From IMG/VR virus record IMGVR_UViG_2684622618_000017: a stretch of 12,850 nucleotides of DNA. The stretch is one strand, 5' to 3'. The notes under the pieces are model-generated. The model was given only the letters and a program-made list of their open reading frames with translations. It was not told the origin of the DNA and did no database searches. Positions 65 to 12,850 of the stretch are shown in pieces. Position numbers and translations under genes: made by a program. Each line of letters begins with the position of its first letter. Position 1 is the stretch's first letter. This stretch comes from a virus. Its lineage: Duplodnaviria > Heunggongvirae > Uroviricota > Caudoviricetes.

Positions 65-3008
65 GTGAATATGGCAGTAAAGATTTCAGGTGTACTGAAA
101 GACGGCACAGGAAAACCGGTAGAGAACTGCACCATTCAACTGAAAGCCAGACGTAACAGCGCCACGGTGGTGGTGAACACGGTGGCCTCTGAAAATCCGG
201 ATGAAGCCGGTCGTTACAGCATGGACGTTGAGTACGGTCAGTACAGCGTNNNNNNNNNNNNNNNNNNNNNNNNNNNNNNNNNNNNNNNNNNNNNNNNNNT
301 CACATGCCGGGACCATCACCGTGTATGAAGATTCTCAACCCGGTACGCTGAATGATTTTCTTGGTGCCATGACTGAGGATGATGTCCGTCCGGAGGCACT
401 GCGCCGTTTTGAGCTGATGGTGGAAGAGGTGGCGCGTAACGCGTCCGCGGTGGCACAGAACACGGCAGCCGCGAAGAAGTCAGCCAGCGATGCCAGCACA
501 TCAGCCCGTGAGGCGGCAACCCATGCGACTGATGCTGCGGACTCAGCACGCGCAGCCAGCACGTCAGCCGGACAGGCCGCGTCGTCGGCTCAGTCAGCGT
601 CTTCCAGCGCAGGAACGGCATCAACAAAGGCTACTGAAGCATCAAAAAGTGCTGCCGCTGCAGAGTCCTCAAAAAGCGCGGCGGCTACCAGTGCCGGTGC
701 GGCGAAAACGTCAGAAACGAATGCGGCAGTGTCACAACAATCAGCCGCCACTTCTGCATCCACCGCGACCACGAAAGCGTCAGAAGCTGCCTCCTCAGCC
801 AGGGATGCGTCGGCTTCAAAAGAGGCGGCAAAATCATCAGAAACGAGCGCAGCCTCGAGCGCCAGTAGTGCAGCCTCCTCGGCAACGGCGGCAGGCAATT
901 CCGCGAAGGCGGCCAAAACGTCTGAGACAAACGCTAAGTCCTCTGAAACGGCAGCAGAACAGAGTGCCTCCGCAGCAGCAGGCTCAAAAACAGCGGCTGC
1001 ATTATCTGCCAGTGCCGCGTCAACAAGTGCCGGGCAGGCCTCAGCCAGTGCCACCGCCGCCGGAAAATCGGCAGAAAGTGCCGCATCGTCTGCTTCAACA
1101 GCCACAACGAAGGCTGGCGAAGCCACTGAACAGGCCAGCGCAGCAGCGAGTTCTGCTTCCGCAGCGAAGACATCCGAAACGAACGCGAAAGCGTCGGAAA
1201 CCAGCGCAGAATCCTCAAAAACGGCTGCCGCATCGTCAGCCAGTTCGGCGGCGTCATCGGCATCATCTGCGTCTGCTTCAAAAGATGAGGCGACCAGACA
1301 AGCGTCAGCAGCGAAGAGCAGCGCCACGACGGCATCCACGAAGGCGACAGAGGCAGCTGGTAGTGCGACGGCAGCAGCTCAGAGCAAAAGTACGGCGGAA
1401 TCTGCAGCAACGCGCGCTGAGACAGCGGCAAAACGGGCAGAGGATATTGCATCCGCCGTGGCGCTTGAGGATGCGAGCACGACGAAAAAGGGGATAGTAC
1501 AGCTCAGCAGTGCGACTAACAGCACTTCCGAGTCACTGGCGGCAACGCCAAAAGCCGTTAAGGCCGCGTATGAGCTGGCTAACGGGAAATACACCGCACA
1601 GGATGCAACGACAGCACAGAAAGGGATAGTTCAGCTTAGCAACGCGACCAACAGCACATCTGAAATGCTGGCGGCAACGCCAAAGTCGGTAAAGGCAGCC
1701 TATGACCTTGCTAACGGGAAATATACTGCTCAGGACGCTACGACAGCACAAAAAGGAATTGTCCAGCTCAGTAGTGCAACCAACAGCGCATCTGAAACGC
1801 TTGCCGCGACACCGAAAGCAGTGAAAGCAGCTAATGATAATGCGAATGGTCGGGTACCTTCTGCCCGTAAGGTGAATGGTAAGGCGCTTTCATCGGATAT
1901 AACACTGACGCCGAAAGATATTGGTACGCTTAACTCAACAACAATGTCATTCAGCGGTGGTGCTGGTTGGTTCAAATTAGCAACGGTAACCATGCCACAG
2001 GCGAGTTCTGTTGTTTCAATTACGTTGATTGGTGGCGCGGGATTTAACGTGGGGTCACCTCAACAGGCAGGTATATCTGAACTTGTTTTGCGTGCAGGTA
2101 ATGGTAATCCGAAGGGGATTACTGGTGCTTTATGGCAGCGCACATCGACAGGGTTTACAAATTTTGCCTGGGTCAATACATCTGGTGATACTTACGATAT
2201 TTACGTTGCAATCGGAAATTATGCGACTGGTGTAAATATTCAATGGGATTATACCAGTAATGCCAGCGTGACGATTCATACGTCACCAGCATATTCTGCT
2301 AATAAGCCGGAAGGGTTAACGGACGGTACAGTTTATTCACTCTATACGCCATCAGAGCAGTTTTATCCGCCTGGCGCACCAATCCCGTGGCCATCAGATA
2401 CCGTTCCGTCTGGCTATGCCCTGATGCAGGGGCAGACTTTTGACAAATCTGCATACCCGAAACTTGCAGCCGCTTATCCGTCAGGCGTGATCCCTGATAT
2501 GCGTGGCTGGACGATTAAGGGCAAACCTGCCAGTGGTCGGGCCGTATTGTCTCAGGAACAGGACGGCATTAAATCGCACACCCACAGCGCCAGCGCATCC
2601 AGTACGGATTTGGGGACGAAAACCACATCGTCGTTTGATTACGGCACTAAATCCACGAATAACACCGGGGCGCACACGCACAGTGTGAGCGGTACAGCCG
2701 CAAGTGCCGGAAACCATACTCATAGTGTCACAGGCGCATCAGCAGTCAGCCAGTGGTCACAAAATGGGTCAGTACATAAGGTAGTGTCTGCGGCCAGTGT
2801 GAATACAAGTGCTGCAGGAGCGCACACTCATAGTGTCAGCGGCACAGCTGCATCTGCAGGTGCTCACGCACATACTGTCGGTATTGGTGCTCATACGCAC
2901 TCTGTTGCGATTGGCTCACATGGACACACCATCACCGTTAACGCTGCGGGTAACGCGGAAAACACTGTCAAAAACATCGCATTTAACTACATTGTGAGGC
3001 TTGCATAA
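65..3008 (+). CDS. stf: Side tail fibre protein, lambda Stf / Rac StfR-like; interrupted by N-run 250-299, which shifts the apparent frame
   Basis: N-terminus [17 protein letters not shown]...[12 protein letters not shown] and ...[20 protein letters not shown] match the lambda/Rac Stf N-terminus from memory. Long Ala/Ser/Thr-rich low-complexity region, three tandem 44-aa [15 protein letters not shown]-type repeats, His-rich GAHTHS repeats and a C-terminal [11 protein letters not shown] as in lambda Stf. Track ORFs 65..328 and 201..3008 are one gene split by the non-length-preserving gap. Confidence 0.88.
250..299. other. Run of 50 N (assembly gap or mask) inside stf; not length-preserving
   Basis: Flanking codons are in different frames. 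By comparison with lambda Stf about 28 nt would be expected here. Confidence 0.9.
1488..1851 (+). repeat. About 2.75 tandem copies of a 132-bp (44-aa) repeat inside stf
   Basis: [44 protein letters not shown] repeated with few substitutions at about 1488, 1620 and 1752; the same motif is shared by lambda Stf and P2 gpH. Confidence 0.8.
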
Positions 3009-3875
3009 TGGCATTCAGAATGAGTGAACAACCACGGACCATAAAAATTTATAATCTGCTGACCGGAACTAATGAATTTATTGGTGAAGGTGACGCATAT
3101 ATTCCGCCTCATACAGGTCTGCCAGCAAACAGTACCTATATTGCACCGCCAGATATTCCGGCTGGCTTCGTGGCTGTTTTCAACAGTGATGAGTCATCGT
3201 GGCATCTCGTTGAAGATCATCGGGGTAAAACGGTTTATGACGTGGCTTCCGGCGACGCGTTATTTATTTCTGAACTCGGCTCATTACCGGAAAATGTTAC
3301 CTGGTTATCGCCGGAAGGGGAGTTTCAGAAGTGGAACGGCACAGCCTGGGTGAAAGATGCAGAAGCAGAAAAACTGTTCCGGATCCGGGAGGCGGAAGAA
3401 ACAAAAAACAGCCTGATGCAGGTAGCCAGTGAGCATATTGCGCCACTTCAGGATGCNNNNNNNNNNNNNNNNNNNNNNNNNNNNNNNNNNNNNNNNNNNN
3501 NNNNNNCATCGGGGTAAAACGGTTTATGACGTGGCTTCCGGCGACGCGTTATTTATTTCTGAACTCGGTCCGTTACCGGAAAATGTTACCTGGTTGTCGC
3601 CGGATGGAGAGTGTCAGAAGTGGAACGGCACATCCTGGGCGAAAGATGCAGAAGCAGAAAAACTGTTTCGGGTACGGGAGGCAGAAGAAACAAAAAACAG
3701 CCTGATGCAGGTAGCCAGTGAGCATATTGCGCCACTTCAGGATGCCGTAGATTTGGATATTGCGACGGAGGAAGAGGCATCGTTACTGGCTGCATGGAAG
3801 ACATATCGGGTATTGTTGAATCGTGTTGATACAACAGTAGCAGCGGATGTTGAGTGGCCAGTCGCCCCACAATAA
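3008..3875 (+). CDS. tfa: Tail fibre assembly protein, lambda Tfa-like; interrupted by N-run 3457-3506 with duplicated flanks
   Basis: [34 protein letters not shown]... and C-terminal ...[27 protein letters not shown] match lambda Tfa from memory. ATG overlaps the stf stop (TAATG at 3006-3010). Confidence 0.85.
3218..3745 (+). repeat. Direct repeat: 3218-3456 and 3507-3745 (239 bp each, roughly 13 mismatches) flanking the gap
   Basis: Both copies start catcggggtaaaacggtttatgacgtggc and end gcgccacttcaggatgc; they differ at scattered positions, some changing amino acids (for example [16 protein letters not shown] versus [16 protein letters not shown]). Confidence 0.85.
3457..3506. other. Run of 50 N (assembly gap or mask) inside tfa
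   Basis: N-run flanked by a 239-bp direct repeat at about 94-95% identity. Confidence 0.9.
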
Positions 3876-3883
3876 AAAGAAAA

Positions 3884-3909
3884 AGCCATCGACAGAAATA
3901 TCGATGGCT
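3884..3909. terminator. Bidirectional rho-independent terminator between convergent tfa and the acetyltransferase gene
   Basis: Inverted repeat agccatcga / tcgatggct with an 8-nt loop, A-tract upstream and T-rich sequence downstream; on the - strand the hairpin is followed by ttttcttttt. Confidence 0.7.
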
Positions 3910-3918
3910 TTATGTACT

Positions 3919-4491
3919 CTATTTATACAATACAACACCACTCTTTTTAGTTATATATGTGCAGTTTGATGGTATATCTTTATTTATAAAAGACATTGCA
4001 CCTATTTTTACATTATCCCCAATTTTACGTGATAATCCAATGATGCAACAATTAGCTCCGATATCAACGTTACTACCAATTTTTACTCTTGAACTAGGCA
4101 TATCACCATCTATCTGTCCAATGGTAGTATTCTGTCGTAATACCAGATTTTCACCCGCATCAACAGCAAAATGAACAACAATTCCAGCATGATGGGGAAT
4201 TGTCAACCCTTTTCCAATATTTGCGCCCAATCCTATTTCACAACCAAACTTGTTAATTATTTTACTGTTTAACTTTTTGGCTGCTTTCTTATGTAATTTA
4301 TTACCATTAATATACATTTCGTTAGCCAACCGCCACCAGAAAAGGAAATTCCGGTTACGCTGCTTTTTCTCTCTTAAAAGCCTCCAGATATCCATACGTT
4401 TCCGCCGAATTACTTCATGTTTCCAGAAGTTTTTTAAATTAGTAGAGTTTCCAAATAAAACAAAGTGAATTGCCATTAAGTAAGATAGCAC
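3919..4491 (-). CDS. Hexapeptide-repeat O-acetyltransferase, WcaB/CysE (serine acetyltransferase)-like; AT-rich moron
   Basis: Left-handed beta-helix hexapeptide motifs (IGKGLTIPHHAGIVVH..., IGSNVDIGANCCIIG..., IGDNVKIGAMSFI) and an N-terminal region resembling the WcaB family. GTG at 4491 has a strong SD (aaggag, 6-nt spacer); the upstream ATG at 4524 lacks an SD. Roughly 30% GC against roughly 50-55% for the neighbours. Confidence 0.75.
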   Translation of the reverse strand: MLSYLMAIHFVLFGNSTNLKNFWKHEVIRRKRMDIWRLLREKKQRNRNFLFWWRLANEMYINGNKLHKKAAKKLNSKIINKFGCEIGLGANIGKGLTIPHHAGIVVHFAVDAGENLVLRQNTTIGQIDGDMPSSRVKIGSNVDIGANCCIIGLSRKIGDNVKIGAMSFINKDIPSNCTYITKKSGVVLYK

Positions 4492-4542
4492 GATAATCTC
4501 CTTAATTATTATTTCAGACCACACATGTTATAAGGTTAAGAG

Positions 4543-4571
4543 ATTATAAAATCCTGTTATTTGTTATTCAA
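4543..4571 (-). promoter_or_regulatory. Sigma70-like promoter for the acetyltransferase gene: -35 TTGAAT, 17-bp spacer, -10 TATAAT
   Basis: On the - strand: TTGAAT (plus 4566-4571), 17 bp, perfect TATAAT (plus 4543-4548), about 45 nt upstream of the GTG start. Confidence 0.55.
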
Positions 4572-4604
4572 AAACAATTTTCTGAGAAGGACATACAACA
4601 GCAA

Positions 4605-4638
4605 GTCGCCAGTCACCTTCATCAGGAAATTGGCGACA
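4605..4638. other. Imperfect inverted repeat downstream of U (gtcgcca ... tggcgac)
   Basis: 7-bp arms with a roughly 20-nt loop and no clear T-tract; a weak terminator candidate at best. Confidence 0.2.
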
Positions 4639-4647
4639 TACGTTAAA

Positions 4648-5136
4648 TCAGAGCAGCCCCTTAACTGAGCTGGCCGCGCTATTAAGGGATGATGTCACCT
4701 TATCTTTGAAGCCGGACAGCATATCGCTGAACGATGAGGATTGCAGGCGCTCCCGCAAATCCTCATCACAGCGTTCAAGAGTCAGTGAAAATTCTATCTT
4801 TTTCGCCTTACCGTAGCGATCAAACTCGGAGCGGGTCGTATTCGTTCCGGTCAGGACATACATGCCGTAAATCTGCCCGACGCCATCAATCAAAGGCCAA
4901 GGACGTCCTGTATATGCCTGCGTGGTCAACAACGACAGCGACACTTCGCCACCAGTAATCTCAGGATAAAGAACACCAGAAAGAACGATGCGATCATCAC
5001 CTGCACCGATATACTGCCAGCTTGCTGAACGGTTAACGCGTTCATTTTTCACATGTCGCCAGCTTTTGTTTTGCTGTAACTGCTGATGCGGCAACGTGCG
5101 CAGCTCAAAAACAAACATGCCGTAGATCATCATCAT
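4648..5136 (-). CDS. U: P2-like tail protein gpU
   Basis: MMMIYGMFVFELRTLPHQQLQ...WQYIGAGDDRIVLSGVLYPEITGG resembles P2 gpU from memory. Start chosen at the ATG at 5136 (SD gaggag with 8-nt spacer); the track start at 5142 is only 2 nt from the SD. Confidence 0.8.
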   Translation of the reverse strand: MMMIYGMFVFELRTLPHQQLQQNKSWRHVKNERVNRSASWQYIGAGDDRIVLSGVLYPEITGGEVSLSLLTTQAYTGRPWPLIDGVGQIYGMYVLTGTNTTRSEFDRYGKAKKIEFSLTLERCDEDLRERLQSSSFSDMLSGFKDKVTSSLNSAASSVKGLL

Positions 5137-5148
5137 GGCCATGACTCC

Positions 5149-7961
5149 TCAATCTTTATCGTAAAAACTGCCACGCCTGGCACGGGCGCGCCGTTCCATT
5201 TCTGCCCTGACCATTTCGCCGACCAGTTTCGCCAGTTCGCGGGGATTCTGCGTAACAACGTTATGCAGATGAACATGAATTTCACCGCCAAATCCGGAGG
5301 CAACAGGCTCCCGGTTACGGGAAGTTGCAGGAACTGATGCCACTGGCGATCGTATGGCCTCCACCACCGGGCGGGAGCTGGCCGCAACAACAGGGACCAG
5401 CGCCGGAGGCAGCGGAGCCGGGACCACGGGTGTGATATTAATTGCGGGGGCAGGCTTACTGACCTGCGCAATCTTCCGCTCCTGCCACTCCCCACGAACA
5501 GCAAGTGCGCGGGGCAGGTTCTTAAAGACAATATCGCCGGGGCCAATGCGTTTTTTTGTCTCATCAACCAGCTTACCTGTGTTATCAGCAATTTTGCTGA
5601 GTCTGCGTAGCGTGCCGGTATTGCTGTCTGTGAGAGGTTTGTTGTCTTTGGGTTTATCATCTCCGGTGCCATTGCTATTTCCCGCAGACTTCGGCGGATT
5701 GATTTTCGCAATGTCTCCCTGAAACAGAGCAACCTTGTCCTGAAGAATGGCCGCACGTTGTGCGTCTTCGATTTTCTTGCGCGCCCTTTCCGCTTCATCC
5801 GGAAGCACACCGAGTTTTTCAAGTATCCACGCCAGCGTATCCAGCAACATTTTTGCAGGCGTCAGAACAAGCTGTAACGCACCACCAAGAACGTTACCGA
5901 ATACCTCGCCAGCACTGGTACATTTATCCAGCGTTTCCTTGCTGGACTCCATCGGTGACAGCAGCGATTTAAACCAGTTAAACACCTGGCTGAACCGCTT
6001 CCGATTACGTCAAAAACAGGGCCAAACCGTTCAAAGGTGTCGCGCAACGGGGTCAGCCTTTCCATAATCCCGCTGAACACCCCGGCAAAGAAAGCCCTGA
6101 TAGGATCCCAGTATTTCCAGATAAGAACGGCAGCTCCGGCAAGCGCAGCCACGATAAGACCAACCGGACTGAACAACGCCCCGATAACGCCTCCCAGTAA
6201 AGAAACGGAACCCGTCACCATTCCCCATAGCGCAGGTAACACCCTGACGACATTCATTGACCGGGTAAGAATGTCAAAACCAAGACGCAGGGTGGCCAGC
6301 TTCCCGTAAAGCACCCCAATAACCAGCGACAACGAGCCAATCGTTGCAGTCATTGCCAGCAACGCACCGCCTGCTATCAGTAGCTGGCGCGTCAGTACCG
6401 GATGGGCCTGCGCCAGCGAGGTGATTTTTTCAAGCACCCGCGTGAGCCACTGCGTGACAGAACGCAGCGGACCGTCAACCAGATCACTGATGCGAATACG
6501 AAGACCTTCCCATGCGCTGTCGAGATTTTTCAGGTCCCCATCAAGATTATCAGCCATTACTTTTGCGACGCGATCGGCCTCTCCCCTTGCCCCCTGCAAT
6601 TCTCTGGTCAGTTTTTGCAGCTCTCCTGAACCAGCCGCCGCAACAAGCGTCTGCAAACCAACGAACGCCTCTTCTCCGGCGATGTCCTTGAAGAAGGAGA
6701 CCTGGTCCACCTGTCCGTATTTTTGTGTCGCCTTATAGAGATCAAGCAGCACATCCTCCATCGGGCGCATTTTGCCTCTGGCGTCAGCAACTGACACCCC
6801 CAGCTCTTTCAGTGCATCAGCCGCAGCTTTTGGCGGTGATGCAAGGCGGGACAGACTTGCGCGCATGGCCGTGCCAGCATCGCTTCCGCGAAGACCATTA
6901 TTGGCAAGCATCCCGGCCATGGCCGCCGCTTCTTCAAGACTGATACCAAGTTTTGCGGCAACCGGACCGGTATACTTCATGGTTTCGCCCAGCGCGCGTA
7001 AATCAGTATTGGTCCGGGTAAATGCTGCTGTCAGCGTATCGCCCACCCGGTCCATTTGATCGGCTGTCAGGTTGAACTGTGTGAGGATATTGGAGCCTAT
7101 ATCAGCCGTCTCGCCGAGTTCGACGCCACCTGCCAGCGCCATATTAAGAACACCGGGCAATGCGGCCTGAATGGCCTGCGGAGTAAAACCAGCCATTGCC
7201 AGAAAGCTCTGCCCACTGGCGGCATCACTCGCAGTAAACTGTGTTTCAGCAAGTTTTAACGCCTGCTCACGCAGCGCCTTAAACTGCGGGCTGTTTTTGT
7301 CGATTCGCGTCAGTGCCTGAACGCGGGACATCTCTTTGCCGAACCCGATCGCAGGCTGCAAAAAACGCCCGGCAGCATAGCCGCCCGCCGCTGCCGCACC
7401 AATTGCCAGCGCACCACCTGTTTTCAGTTTTCCCGCGGTTTCCTGCGCGTGCGAATACCGCTCACGCGCCTGCGTTACACGCGCAAGCGCCTGCCGTTCG
7501 CGTTCAAGCTGGTTGTTGTATTGTTCGGTGCGTCTGATGGCCTGCTGAATGGTGTTATCGCTGCCTGTCAGGGAAATGCCGTGGCGTTTCAGCTCTCCGC
7601 CAAGTTCCCTCATTTTCTGAATTTCCCGTGTGCGCGATTCATTCAGGCGTTCAAGCCGGGTGCTTAACTGCTGCATCAGCTTTTGTTGTTTTTCGCTGAG
7701 CACTGTACCCGTGCGTTGTAACTGATTAAGGGCGTTAAGCTGGCGTCGTGCTTTCACGATGCCAGCATCCGCTTTACTGACAGCGTCGCGGGCGCGCTCA
7801 AATGATCGCGCCTGACGCTCGAGATTTTTGATCGCCCCCTGCGTTCGCTGGATGGAGTCACCAAACTGCCCCATCAGGCGGCGTGCGTTTTCGGCAGGTC
7901 GGGTCAGCCTGTCAACGGCGCTGAAAGCGACCCGGATATCAAGAGTCTTCATTGTCTGCAT
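5149..7961 (-). CDS. T: P2-like tail tape measure protein gpT; reading frame disrupted near 5985-6005 (frameshift mutation or sequence error)
   Basis: ORF 5862..7988 (long coiled-coil/Ala-Gly-rich tape-measure-like protein) ends in an implausible Cys/Trp/Arg-rich tail, while the overlapping ORF 5149..5985 in another frame continues with plausible sequence (FNWFKSLLSPMESSKETLDK...GSFYDKD). Start placed at the ATG at 7961 or 7952; the track start at 7988 is GTG. Confidence 0.75.
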
Positions 7962-8468
7962 TCCCGCTGCGAAGTGCCGCCCGCTCACGCCAGCTAACCA
8001 CTTCGCCGGGCGTCATCATGAAGATTTCGGCGGGCGACCAGTTAAAAATAACGGCAATATCTGCCACAAAGTCTTCTATGTGCTCAAAGCACACAACCGT
8101 GATCAGGCTTCCGTCGCCTGTTCGTTCTTCCCGCCAGAGTCCGCACCGCTCAAAAAATTTACGGCAACCACACATAACTGAATAAAGTCACGGGATGCCA
8201 TTTTTTTGATCGTCACTTCATCCAGTCGCGGTGATGTCACGCGTGACAGCAGCGTAAACATGGATTCCGCTTTCAGATTCAGCACATCAGACAGCGACAA
8301 ATCTCGCAGAGATCCAGCCTGCTCAATAGCCCCGGTGATCTCCACATACGTGATTTTTTCGCCGCCTCGCTCAATTGGTTGGGTAAGTTTTACACCACGC
8401 TCACTGGTTTCTTTCACAGTGTCAGTAACTACCGTGTTTTCGGTATCGATGTTTTTCGTCTCTTTCAT
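7939..8468 (-). CDS. E': gpE+E' fusion made by programmed -1 translational frameshift
   Basis: The -1 frame downstream of the slippery site is open to 7939 (FFERCGLWREERTGDGSLITVVCFEHIEDF...), matching track ORF 7939..8175; this is the arrangement known for P2 E/E'. Confidence 0.65.
8103..8468 (-). CDS. E: P2-like tail protein gpE
   Basis: Position between the tube gene and tape measure gene; good SD (aaggag) 6 nt upstream of the ATG at 8468; the frame contains the T6G slippery site near its 3' end. Confidence 0.75.
   Translation of the reverse strand: MKETKNIDTENTVVTDTVKETSERGVKLTQPIERGGEKITYVEITGAIEQAGSLRDLSLSDVLNLKAESMFTLLSRVTSPRLDEVTIKKMASRDFIQLCVVAVNFLSGADSGGKNEQATEA
8151..8157 (-). 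promoter_or_regulatory. Slippery heptamer T TTT TTG (mRNA sense) for the E/E' -1 frameshift
   Basis: Zero-frame codons AAT TTT TTG (N F L) read on the - strand across plus 8151-8159. Confidence 0.65.
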
Positions 8469-8522
8469 CAGGAAACTCCTTTCAGTCAGAGGCGACGCAC
8501 TGCGCCGCCTGCATATTACTTA

Positions 8523-9035
8523 TCAGCCAAGCCCAAGCGCGGAACGGATGCGATCGGGCACAATGTCCTTGCCGTCCTTCCGGTAAATGAAGTTCAGCAG
8601 GTCAATCTCCCACAACGGGCGATCGTTAACACTCAGCTTGTAGTAGGTGTTTTTAATGGCGTAAGTGTGTGATGTGGCTTCGCCCTGTTTGGCTTCCCCC
8701 ATATCAATTTCCGTCACACGTCCGCGCATTTCGACTTCATACAGGTCGCTTTCATCATCGGTGTAGTATTCCCCCGCAAAACGCAGTAGCGTGCCGTCAA
8801 TCGTGCCGCCATACTTCAGGAACAGCTCACGAACTGCGCCCCCCATGACAAAGCTCGCATCAAGCGCGGAGTCGTCCAGGCCGAGGTCAATACTTACCGC
8901 ACCCATCATGCCACCACCCCGGTAGCTGTCGGTTTTGCGCGTCAGTTTAGGCAGGGTGACGGACGTCACCTTACCCACTTCGTTTTCACCATCCACAAAC
9001 AGCGTAAAAAAGCGAAGATGTTTTGGTACAGCCAT
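8523..9035 (-). CDS. FII: P2-like tail tube protein FII
   Basis: MAVPKHLRFFTLFVDGENEVGKVTSVTLPKLTRKTDSYRGGGMMGAVSIDLGLDD... resembles P2 FII; start overlaps the FI stop (TGATG). Confidence 0.85.
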   Translation of the reverse strand: MAVPKHLRFFTLFVDGENEVGKVTSVTLPKLTRKTDSYRGGGMMGAVSIDLGLDDSALDASFVMGGAVRELFLKYGGTIDGTLLRFAGEYYTDDESDLYEVEMRGRVTEIDMGEAKQGEATSHTYAIKNTYYKLSVNDRPLWEIDLLNFIYRKDGKDIVPDRIRSALGLG

Positions 9036-10219
9036 CAGGCACCTCCCAGCACCGCAAATGCGGGACCAAAGAATTCATCAGTAAACGACTGGTAAAGCTC
9101 CATGTCTTCCAGCGGAGGAACGGGCGTATATTTGTAGCGAATACGCACACGCCCCTGACGTAAATTCGTGGTGCTGTTATCCTCGATGTCATACCAGCAC
9201 TCCGCGCCAATCAGTTTCCCGGCAGTAACCAGTGAATCCAGTTTTGCCCTGATGGCACTGATAACATCCTTCACGTTCGCAGGTGTCAGTGGACTGTCGA
9301 TGGTTTCAAACTGCGCTTCCGCAATTGAATCAGCCAGCACCTGTGCGGTTCGGGTATACACCTCAAAGATGTAGGCGTTCGTTTCCGGTGTGCGGTTGCC
9401 CCAGAAGCGGAACCCGTTGCGACGAATAATGGTCGTGATTTCTTTGTTGTTGAGGCTGTTGGCATCACTGTCTTCGGCCTGCAACGACCAGAACACATGC
9501 CTCGACATCCCAAGCACATTTTTAACCGGAACGTTGGACAGCGATTTGTGCCAGCCCTGCTCATGGTCAATGTACGCACGAAGGCCGCACGCATAAGCAG
9601 GCGCGGGGAACGTTTCGTTTTTGCCACTTTTCAGGTTGTAGGCGATGAAGTCAGGCCATAAGAGCATCACCTCACGTTCGTTGAATTTCTGGCGGTAGGT
9701 AATCGCCTCAGCCATCGTGTTACAACCATGACATGTGGCATACACAAACGCGCGCAGTTTACCCGCAATCACGCACAGGGATTTTGTTACCGCCTCCGTG
9801 TCCAGCTCCGGCGCGGCCAGAATACGCGGACGGTATCCGATGCTTTCATCCTGCTCTGCAACAAGCAGCGCATACATCCCCGTATAGCTGCCGTCAGATT
9901 CAGAACCACCGATAACCAGTTGATCCTGCGTCTTACCGCCTTCTTCTTTGTGTTCAGCCACGCGAACGACGATCACTTTTGTGCTCACCTGGTCTGCGAT
10001 AGCCTTAAGCGCACGATAAAGCGTCCCCGTAGTCCCGCATTTTCCCAGCACGTCATTGACGCGGGTCAGCAGTGTGGGCTTGTTCAGCGGGAACAGCTCC
10101 GCGTCCGCATCATCTGCCGTTGCCACGATACCGATAACACTGGAATCAACATCATTAATCGCTGTTACCAGGTCGGTACTTTCCGTAACACGGGCACCAT
10201 GAAAACGAGTTTCACTCAT
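9035..10219 (-). CDS. FI: P2-like contractile tail sheath protein FI
   Basis: 394 aa; motifs ...FPLNKP...GTLYRALKAIADQ...KLRAFVYATCHGC...WPDF...DHEQGWHKSLSNV...GFRFWGNRT...YTRTAQVLADS...YKYTPVPPLEDM match P2 FI from memory. Confidence 0.9.
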   Translation of the reverse strand: MSETRFHGARVTESTDLVTAINDVDSSVIGIVATADDADAELFPLNKPTLLTRVNDVLGKCGTTGTLYRALKAIADQVSTKVIVVRVAEHKEEGGKTQDQLVIGGSESDGSYTGMYALLVAEQDESIGYRPRILAAPELDTEAVTKSLCVIAGKLRAFVYATCHGCNTMAEAITYRQKFNEREVMLLWPDFIAYNLKSGKNETFPAPAYACGLRAYIDHEQGWHKSLSNVPVKNVLGMSRHVFWSLQAEDSDANSLNNKEITTIIRRNGFRFWGNRTPETNAYIFEVYTRTAQVLADSIAEAQFETIDSPLTPANVKDVISAIRAKLDSLVTAGKLIGAECWYDIEDNSTTNLRQGRVRIRYKYTPVPPLEDMELYQSFTDEFFGPAFAVLGGA

Positions 10220-10376
10220 AGCTTCAGCCCCTTGTATCCGTTAAATGATTCGGCAACAATCATCACCCACCACGCGCGTAATCTCACCCCTGCGCCGTTC
10301 TCCCGCCACGGCGACAACAAAAAGCAGTAACCCCCTCCGCACGCACATGCGACCATGCCGCACAGGGAGGGAACAG

Positions 10377-10643
10377 ATGACCGACACCACCATGCAATTG
10401 CTCAGTCAGGGCACAGACCACGTGAAAGTGCCGGATTTTGATATTCTCGCGGAGGGTAAAACGCTGTCAGGCGTGGCAGAGCGCCTGATGAGCCTGTCAC
10501 TGACCGACAACCGGGGATTTGAGGCGGACCAGCTCACCATCACGCTGGATGATGCAGATGGTCAGTTGCAGCTACCGCCACGGGGCGCGCGCCTGACGGT
10601 TCTCATTGGCTGGAAAGGAGAACCGCTGACAGAAAAAGGCACT
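10377..10643 (+). pseudogene. D: 5' fragment (about 89 codons) of P2-like tail protein gpD (Phage_GPD / VgrG-like), truncated by IS30
   Basis: MTDTTMQLLSQGTDHVKVPDFDILAEGKTLSGVAERLMSLSLTDNRGFEADQLTITLDDADGQLQLPPRGARLTVLIGWKG carries the conserved LTDNRGFEADQL motif; SD gggaggg upstream; the ORF runs directly into the IS30 inverted repeat at 10644. Confidence 0.8.
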
Positions 10644-10669
10644 TGTAGATTCAATCTGTCAATGCAACA
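10644..10669. repeat. IS30 terminal inverted repeat (right end)
   Basis: 23 of 26 positions match the reverse complement of 11802-11827. Confidence 0.85.
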
Positions 10670-11765
10670 CCCCTTTCAATTATCTCTTTCGGTGTTTTGA
10701 ACTTCAGTGTCTTTCTCGGTCTGTTGTTTAGCTGAGCAGCAACCAGATCTTCATGTTGAGTATATTGGGCAAGACATGTCTTTTTAGGAAAGTACTGCCG
10801 AATTAGCCCATTTGTGTTCTCATTTGTTCCCCGCTGCCAAGGACTCTGAGGATCGCAGAAGTAAACTTTAACGCCGGTGCTGACAGTAAATTCTAGATGT
10901 CTGGCCAGTTCCATTCCTCTGTCCCATGTCAGTGATTTTCTGAGTTCTGACGGTAAACTCAGGAATTTGTCGGTAAGAGCCTGATTTACTGAGACAGAAT
11001 CTTTGCCCCTGAGTCTGAGGATGATCGTATAACGTGATTTTCGGTCTACAAGTGTGGCTATATGAGAGTTTTTTGTACCTGAGACTAAATCGCCCTCCCA
11101 ATGCCCTAGAGAGCGTCTGNNNNNNNNNNNNNNNNNNNNNNNNNNNNNNNNNNNNNNNNNNNNNNNNNNNNNNNGGCTACGAAAGTACAGCGTTTTATAA
11201 ATTGTCTCAGGTGATATTCGCAGCGTTTTTTGACGTGGTTTTGTTCGCCTTAACCATCCTGATATTTGCTCTGGAGACCATTTCATCTCCAGCTTTTCCA
11301 GAACAAGCTTTCGCAATGGTAAATTTTGATCCAGTAAGCACGGTTTTGGCCTTTTCGCCATTCTGTTGGCTCGGTTATTAGCATCAACAGCTTTGTAATA
11401 GCGTCTGCCCCGATTACGCNNNNNNNNNNNNNNNNNNNNNNNNNNNNNNNNNNNNNNNNNNNNNNNNNNCGATTACGCTGAACTTCACGTGAGATCGTCG
11501 AAGGACTGCGATTCAGCGCAGTAGCTATCGCACGAATGCTCATTTTGGCTGACAAACCAGCTCGTATCTCCTCGCGCTCAGACAGTGTCAGGTGAGCTAC
11601 AGCCCGCTTACGCTCATGGGGTTTTATGCCGCCAGTATCCCTTAACATAGTGAAGATCGTTCCGGGTTTTGAACCCAGGATATTCGCTATTTCACTGAAG
11701 CCTGTTCCGTTCTTCCATAGTTCAAAAACAGAGGCTTTTTCCTCTGCTGTAAATGTTCGTCTCAT
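10651..11765 (-). CDS. insI: IS30 transposase (DDE), interrupted by N-runs 11120-11174 and 11420-11469
   Basis: MRRTFTAEEKASVFELWKNGTGFSEIANILGSKPGTIFTMLRDTGGIKPHERKRAVAHLTLSEREEIRAGLS... and ...HWEGDLVSGTKNSHIATLVDRKSRYTIILRLRGKDSVSVNQALTDKF...QSPWQRGTNENTNGLIRQYFPK match IS30 Tnp from memory. Confidence 0.9.
11120..11174. other. Run of 55 N inside the IS30 transposase gene
   Basis: Roughly 148 nt of coding sequence (about 50 codons between ...YFRS and RRSLGHWEGD...) are replaced by 55 N. Confidence 0.9.
11420..11469. other. Run of 50 N inside the IS30 transposase gene, flanked by a duplicated 9-mer
   Basis: cgattacgc occurs on both sides; the flanking codons (...REVQRNR / RNRGRRYY...) show no coding sequence is actually missing. 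Confidence 0.9.
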
Positions 11766-11801
11766 TCAAAAAAACTCCGCAACCCCATGTTTTCACATAA
11801 C

Positions 11802-11827
11802 TGTTGCGTTGACCAATTGAATCTACA
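11802..11827. repeat. IS30 terminal inverted repeat (left end)
   Basis: Pairs with 10644-10669. Confidence 0.85.
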
Positions 11828-11841
11828 GTGGTCTGTTTTAA

Positions 11842-11937
11842 TATTTCTATTTCTATTTCTATTTCTATTTCTATTTCTATTTCTATTTCTATTTCTATTT
11901 CTATTTCTATTTCTATTTCTATTTCTATTTCTATTTG
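11842..11937. repeat. Perfect hexanucleotide microsatellite (TATTTC)15 plus one degenerate unit
   Basis: 15 consecutive exact tatttc units (11842-11931) then tatttg; begins 14 bp from the IS30 end, in an AT-rich intergenic region upstream of the HNH gene. Confidence 0.95.
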
Positions 11938-12130
11938 TTGTGATTTTTTCTTTAGTTCATGTATTTCGATTTGTTTCTGAATTATCGGGGGTAGTGTCTT
12001 CCCTTTTCCCTGAGGCTTATCATGCAGTTATTTTCGCCATCTTGGTATTGTGGAAATACCGACATCCATAGCTTTGGTGAGCTCTGTTCAGGTGGCCAAA
12101 TTCAGAAAACCATTACGGAGGAAGAAGGCG

Positions 12131-12697
12131 ATGGCTAAACCAGCGCGAAGACGATGTAACCGTAAAAGAGAAGATTTAACTGTTAAAAGGATATTTGAGT
12201 TACTAAGTTTCGATAAATCTACCGGGGTATTTAGATGGAAAGTTCCCACTCAGGGAAGGATAGCATTAAATAGTGTTGCTGGAGCTTTTGATTCCAACGG
12301 TTATTCAATGATCATGATAGATGGGCGTAGATATAAAACTCACGTCTTAGTTTTTTACATAACTCATAATCGTTGGCCTGCTGGTCAAATTGACCACGTT
12401 AATGGAATTAGGACCGACAATAGGCCAGAAAATTTAAGAGAATGCCTGCCAATAGAAAATTCAAGAAATATAAGGATCCGAAAGAATAGCAAATCAGGTT
12501 GCAGAGGGGTTACTTGGCACAAACGACAGAAAAAATGGAATGTTAGGCTAGGATTCCATGGCAAGAGTAAACACTTCGGATGCTTTGATGATCTGGAGTT
12601 AGCGGTACTAGTTGCTGAAGAAGCCCGAGATAAGTATTACGGTGATTTTTCCGGCAACGAAAGGAGCACTTATGCGAATCTATCGAAGGAAATGTAA
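12131..12697 (+). CDS. HNH homing-endonuclease-like protein with C-terminal AP2-type DNA-binding domain
   Basis: HNH signature ...[37 protein letters not shown] and AP2-like [54 protein letters not shown] ggaggaag upstream of the ATG at 12131. About 38% GC. The first 9 residues MAKPARRRC equal the lambda NinG N-terminus as recalled. Confidence 0.75.
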
Positions 12698-12850
12698 ATG
12701 TTGCAATGAATGGTTTATACCAAAATATCAAAATCAATATTGGTGTAATGAGATTTGTGGAACCAAGATAGCACTCGAACGACGAAGTAAAGAACGCGAA
12801 AAAGCGGAAAAGGCAGAAAAGGCAGCAGAGAAGAAACGACGACGAGAGGA
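12672..12850 (+). CDS. ninG: NinG/Rap-like protein, N-terminal part (runs off the window)
   Basis: [59 protein letters not shown] resembles the lambda NinG N-terminal zinc-ribbon region (…[28 protein letters not shown]…) from memory. SD aaggag 5 nt upstream; overlaps the 3' end of the HNH gene. Confidence 0.7.

Follow-up and report, generated by a model that had tools for sequence, protein, structure and literature searches.

The window, that is, the whole stretch of 12,850 nucleotides from the IMG/VR record IMGVR_UViG_2684622618_000017, is interrupted by four runs of N (250-299, 3457-3506, 11120-11174 and 11420-11469), and every stretch between these runs was searched against a set of 5,426 complete genomes of E. 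coli. The lengths of the N-runs are placeholders and hold no distance information. When they are measured against the Sakai genome, the 50 N of the first run stand for 28 bp, the 55 N of the third for 148 bp and the 50 N of the fourth for a 9-bp overlap.

The left part of the window carries the lom-stf-tfa segment of the lambda-like prophage Sp8, all on the plus strand. The first contig (1-249) begins within lom, of which it has the 3' end, and runs into the side tail fibre gene stf, whose ATG is at 71; it is 100% identical to both Sp8 and Sp4 of Sakai (19584-19832 of the fetched Sp8 locus, L008, and 17474-17722 of the fetched Sp4 locus, L005). The second contig begins with the rest of stf (300-3008; ECs_1650, 971 aa), again 100% identical to Sp8, and ends within the Sp8 tail fibre assembly gene tfa (3008-3456; ECs_1651), of which it has 449 of 582 nt, counted from the 5' end. 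This version of tfa, assigned from the identity to Sp8, the Pfam match and the graph analysis described below, is called allele A here. In the Sakai chromosome (NC_002695.2), 1-249 and 300-3456 correspond at 100% to 1649583-1649831 and 1649860-1653016 in Sp8, where lom is annotated as ECs_1649. Many finished O157:H7 genomes also match 300-3456 at 100%, in a lambdoid prophage with J, lom, the 971-aa side tail fibre gene and a 193-aa tfa. The Sakai region at 1.19-1.235 Mb was considered as the source of the left contig and rejected, because it is Sp4, whose fibre gene is short and of another kind; the left contig belongs to Sp8.

A chimeric join was first suspected at the N-run within stf (250-299). 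This was ruled out, since both pieces are 100% identical to Sp8 and collinear in it in Sakai and 86-24, with a real distance of 28 bp (19833-19860 of the fetched Sp8 locus). The suspicion arose from strain 2017C-4109, in which the sequence preceding the left contig has no more than 95.6% identity to 1-249, and the 100% match of 1-249 lies 465 kb away. The 50 N that stand in the window in place of the 28 real bases of Sp8 shift the frame, so that the ORF finder gives stf as 201-3008 and not from the ATG at 71. With regard to domains, Pfam detects phage_tail_N (PF08400), Phage_fiber_2 and Collar in stf. PF08400 is the lambdoid 'Prophage tail fibre N-terminal' domain, and Phage_fiber_2 is found as repeats in the stf protein. 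Three tandem 132-nt units, with 62-77% identity to the reference unit, occupy 1468-1863 in stf.

The second contig stops where a 62-bp block common to the Sp13 copy of tfa ends. In finished genomes, the Sp8 tfa continues past the base equivalent to 3456 with a T and then a different 3' end (…GATGCTGTAGATCTGGAAATCGC…), followed by Mn-catalase and ferritin-like genes, with the Mn-catalase gene at 1653269-1654159 in Sakai. In comparison with Sp8 of Sakai, the window is without the last 133 nt of ECs_1651 and without the Mn-catalase and ferritin-like genes.

On both sides of the N-run at 3457-3506 lies the same part of tfa. The stretches 3218-3456 and 3507-3745, both on the plus strand, form a gap-free alignment of 239 bp in which 13 positions differ (94.56% identity), which bears out the original prediction of 94-95%, and the pair was also recovered by a repeat finder (family D2). 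The last base of the left copy and the first base of the right copy adjoin the N-run directly. The local alignment score across this gap is 200 and that of the flanks of the other three gaps only 8-9; the match is far above chance. Both copies lie in the tfa reading frame and match the Pfam family Caudo_TAP, to which tail fibre assembly proteins of the lambda Tfa/P2 gpG type belong (PF02413; 64.5 bits for the left part and 138.7 bits for the right part, with a cut-off of 22.1). The 13 differences amount to six amino-acid changes in 79 codons and five synonymous codon changes. This pattern indicates two real tfa alleles rather than read errors, as had been claimed in the first place (two different alleles, not one sequence read twice). 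Each copy consists of 62 identical, 115 variable and 62 identical bases, an anatomy seen both in the alignment and in the graph at k = 63, and all 13 differences fall in the central 115. Both copies are partial, and the window has no complete tfa ORF directly 3' of the tail fibre gene.

To the right of this N-run, the block 3507-11119 is uninterrupted, and the N-run positions agree with the extent given for it earlier. It is 100% identical to 2604970-2612582 of Sakai (NC_002695.2), which belongs to Sp13, and to EDL933, 86-24 and hundreds more. Sp13 is reported to be the sole P2-like prophage of Sakai and to be without most morphogenetic genes (PMC2669165). The block begins on the plus strand with the last 369 nt of the Sp13 tfa remnant (3507-3875; ECs_5739, labelled tfaQ), and the right repeat copy is the Sp13 version, allele B. 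The next gene, on the minus strand, encodes a serine O-acetyltransferase according to the annotation of finished genomes (3919-4491; ECs_2638); its Hexapep match in Pfam is weak (24.1 bits, under the curated cut-off of 27). The Sp13 tail genes of P2 type follow on the same strand (4648-10219), as identified by annotation and Pfam, namely gpU (4648-5136), a frameshifted tape measure gene T (5149-7952), E (8103-8468), the tube gene FII (8523-9035) and the sheath gene FI (9035-10219). At the end of the block, on the plus strand, comparison with Sp13 and the graph place a gpD fragment cut by IS30 and the first part of the Sp13 copy of IS30 (10377-11119). In all of these features, from the truncated tfa to the IS30-cut D fragment, the window is the same as Sp13 of Sakai. 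The tape-measure gene is a pseudogene in Sakai (ECs_2640) and 86-24 and is intact, at 2808 bp, in E. coli 55989 and in O157:H7 LSU61. These matches to Sp8 and Sp13 also justify the labels that had been given to the two parts, a lambdoid stf/tfa and a P2-like module.

The two sides of Sp13 differ from those in the window. Upstream of the base equivalent to 3507, finished genomes have 164 bp of tfa, then IS629/IS1203, ParM and a replication gene, and no stf, whereas the window has stf. The Sp13 upstream region thus holds plasmid-partition and replication genes and no fibre gene, and the Sp13 tfa is truly 5'-truncated by IS629 in these genomes. Beyond IS30, Sp13 continues with its own genes and leuZ, whereas the window has genes for an HNH endonuclease and NinG. 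The contig at 11175-11419 (plus strand) is 100% identical to IS30 and represents its interior. The last one (11470-12850, plus strand) carries the end of IS30, a (TATTTC)15 array, the HNH endonuclease gene and the 5' part of ninG, and it is a flank of Sp17 type, not of Sp13. Its counterpart in Sakai is in Sp17 at 3.49 Mb on the opposite strand, and some O157:H7 genomes other than Sakai have the flank with the HNH endonuclease and NinG genes near 1.23 Mb. The Sp13 contig ends at 11119, exactly 62 bp into the sequence common to the Sp17 copy of IS30, and the two contigs after it overlap by 9 bp in Sakai coordinates despite the 50 N between them. A second mis-join via IS30, by which the Sp13 contig would have been coupled to the flank of a different IS30 copy, is probable from these comparisons. 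As for the hexanucleotide array just outside IS30 (11842-11931), Sp17 of Sakai has nine units there, a difference of 36 bp, and the number of units seems to vary among strains of O157:H7, as at a variable-number tandem repeat locus.

It is evident that the N-run at 3457-3506 connects places that are far from each other in the chromosome. In Sakai, it couples 1,653,016 in Sp8 to 2,604,970 in Sp13, 952 kb apart, and 86-24 has the loci of Sp8 and Sp13 type at 2.42 and 3.37 Mb. For CDC#03-98, the positions are 4.57 Mb (plus strand) and 4.11 Mb (minus strand), a separation of 0.46 Mb. The two tfa loci are thus separated by 0.46-0.95 Mb within the same finished genomes. They are in direct orientation in Sakai, 86-24, PA20 and most of the listed strains, and they are inverted relative to each other in some finished genomes, such as those of CDC#03-98 and strain 472. 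With the left contig 100% identical to Sp8 and the right one 100% identical to Sp13, these distances support the suggestion that contig ends from two tfa paralogues were joined into a chimera. The doubt that had been raised about the linkage of the lambdoid stf/tfa to the acetyltransferase and the P2-like module was also well placed, because every finished O157:H7 genome examined contradicts this linkage.

A further comparison is given by the junction itself. Since allele A extends to 3394 in the left contig and the right contig has Sp13-specific sequence from 3746, a true adjacency needs allele A, the shared 62-mer and the Sp13 3' end in succession. We therefore used a hybrid query of 372 bp built in this order, with the sequence downstream in Sp13 as its last part, which is the only junction compatible with adjacent contigs. 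No match of at least 99% to this junction was found in the 5,426 complete E. coli genomes, the best one being 97.0%. Against O157:H7 genomes, the query gave 96.5%, and this value equals the 13 differences between alleles A and B, which identifies these matches as the parental Sp13 allele.

The contig ends have a simple geometry in a de Bruijn graph. The contigs of such a graph end on shared (k-1)-mers, and paralogues yield two versions of the sequence between shared vertices. Four prophage loci of Sakai (Sp4, Sp8, Sp13 and Sp17) were turned into graphs at several values of k. At k = 63, branch vertices are located at 3395-3456, where the left contig ends, at 3507-3568, an out-branch vertex where the right contig starts, at 11058-11119, where the right contig ends, and at 1-62, where the window begins. 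The coincidence of vertices and contig ends was lost for the same four loci with k = 55, 61, 65 or 77. From this we conclude that the contigs came from a de Bruijn assembly at k = 63 and ended on shared (k-1)-mers. The contig ends on 62-base vertices also explain the length of the repeat, because 239 bp is 62 + 115 + 62 and follows from the graph geometry. The sequences themselves fit this closely: the tfa genes of Sp8 and Sp13 share an identical block of 85 bp at the start of the right contig, which begins 62 bases before the first mismatch, and past the end of the left contig the two genes differ already at the following base (equivalent to 3457). The gap pattern is the textbook case of contig-end overlap at repeat branch points, without any difference from it. 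The four-locus graph did not account for the contig ends at 249, 300, 11175, 11419 and 11470, which probably depend on other paralogues outside this graph. Position 1 of the window is an in-branch vertex at k = 63 where the sequences of Sp4 and Sp8 converge, so that the window probably starts at the start of a contig or scaffold, and it may be a whole small scaffold of repeat-bounded contigs.

Taken together, we consider with a probability of about 90% that the gap and the divergent 239-bp repeats are an assembly and scaffolding artefact in a draft genome of E. coli O157:H7. The lambdoid prophages of Sakai are reported to be so similar that the design of gene-specific probes for them is often impossible (PMC2669165). 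The draft genome would hold several paralogous tfa genes, and a de Bruijn assembler at k = 63 would have ended the contig of the Sp8 lom-stf-tfa segment with allele A and begun the contig of the Sp13 tfa 3' part with allele B. Both breaks would have occurred at 62-base vertices where the paths of the paralogues meet and part, and each contig would have kept its own version of the stretch between the vertices, giving the 239 bp. A scaffolder would then have put both contigs side by side with a fixed spacer of 50 N. We infer the program behind the join and its reason; most probably, reads or mates fitted both near-identical ends equally well and so misled it. Direct observation covers the identity of each contig with its locus, the distance between the loci, the absence of the junction and the position of contig ends on vertices at k = 63. 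The IS30 end of the Sp13 contig appears to have been joined by the same kind of scaffolding error.

Nevertheless, the scaffold looks plausible, because the order of fibre gene, tfa, acetyltransferase and inverted P2 tail genes exists in intact prophages. E. coli 55989 (NC_011748.1) and O157:H7 LSU61 (NZ_CP038336.1) have a tail fibre gene H, tfa and serine acetyltransferase, then U-T-E-FII-FI on the opposite strand, and LSU61 matches 3507-10635 of the window at 99.9%. On the other hand, the fibre genes of these two have an N-terminus of P2 type, their tfa is only 93.9-95.5% identical to that of the left contig, and the segment 1-1496 of the window has no counterpart in either of these two fetched relatives. 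The low identity of tfa indicates that the left contig is not from a prophage of the 55989/LSU61 type. The origin of the whole stf-tfa-acetyltransferase segment from one P2-like prophage was thus ruled out for the left contig, since the fibre gene and tfa together are 92-95.5% identical and 1-1496 is unmatched. The lambdoid PF08400 domain in stf and the unmatched 1-1496 agree with the interpretation as an artefact.

Some other features of these P2-like prophages can be mentioned. In Sp13, 55989 and LSU61, the block of acetyltransferase and U-T-E-FII-FI reads opposite to the fibre gene, tfa, D and ogr (3919-10700 in the window, 8110-15691 in the fetched 55989 locus, L001, and 9018-16588 in the fetched LSU61 locus, L002). 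In phage P2 itself, the fibre gene, tfa, D, ogr and U-T-E-FII-FI all read the same way. No convincing long inverted repeats were found around the opposite-strand tail block in the window. Moreover, some intact P2-like relatives have a gene for a 300-aa macro-domain protein between the tail fibre gene and tfa (7485-8387 of the LSU61 locus), and this insert is absent from 55989.

Among the alternatives to a scaffolding artefact, a real join is the least improbable, though we regard it as unlikely. It supposes that the Sp8 tfa recombined with the Sp13 tfa remnant by a crossover in the 62-bp identical block, which fused stf and tfa of allele A to the downstream genes of Sp13, and that the assembler placed allele B at the start of the right contig although this stretch belongs to the reciprocal junction. 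The shared block at 3395-3456 is one base shorter than k, so the graph at k = 63 is the same for the parental sequences and for an in-block recombinant, and it does not separate them across the 62-bp vertex. Moreover, large rearrangements flanked by prophages are real and frequent in O157:H7 (PMC8991562, citing Iguchi 2006), and the inverted loci of CDC#03-98 and strain 472 would make an inversion geometrically possible there. In Sakai, 86-24, PA20 and most of the listed strains, however, the direct orientation implies that such a join would delete about 950 kb of the chromosome. The required hybrid junction occurs in none of the 5,426 complete genomes, and hundreds of genomes have a parental Sp13 that agrees at 100% with the right contig as assembled (allele B, the 62-mer and what follows in Sp13). 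The other end of this 7.6-kb contig is also non-collinear, at IS30, so that two independent rearrangements would be needed. If the join were true, the recombinant would mark one endpoint of a rearrangement that spans about 0.5-1 Mb and involves a lambdoid and a P2-like prophage.

A true partial tandem duplication within one tfa, with its junction hidden by the N-run, is very improbable: its sole support is the presence of two direct copies 289 bases apart, whereas the copies differ by 5.4% in surroundings that other strains share at 100%, each copy agrees at 100% with a pre-existing locus of its own, their boundaries are contig ends and (k-1)-mer vertices with no biological landmark, the offsets of 289 (as written) and 239 (if directly abutted) are both out of frame, and no finished genome examined has a duplicated tfa in this context. 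The real duplication that the original prediction had left as an alternative thus finds hardly any place. Equally slight is the chance that a mixed culture or a contaminating strain supplied two variants of one locus which formed a bubble; a graph bubble does have the form of a variable stretch (here 115 bases) between two shared ones (62 each), whereas every finished O157:H7 genome examined has both alleles, at different loci, and Sp8 and Sp13 differ outside the shared blocks, with five mismatches in tfa upstream of the 85-bp block and 37 from the base equivalent to 3457 onward into the intergenic sequence. This strong divergence beyond the shared blocks argues that A and B are paralogues and not variants of one locus.

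Finally, the feature is not real biology, and both underlying loci are already known: the many near-identical tail-fibre genes of O157:H7 prophages and the degraded P2-like Sp13 have been described. The finding is therefore a matter of quality control only. Gene calls across the N-runs, such as the ORFs 3008-3517 and 3429-3875, are artefacts to be ignored, and the scaffold is unfit for calling a duplicated or frameshifted tfa. Nor should it serve as evidence of linkage between a lambdoid side tail fibre module and either a P2-like tail module or the acetyltransferase gene.
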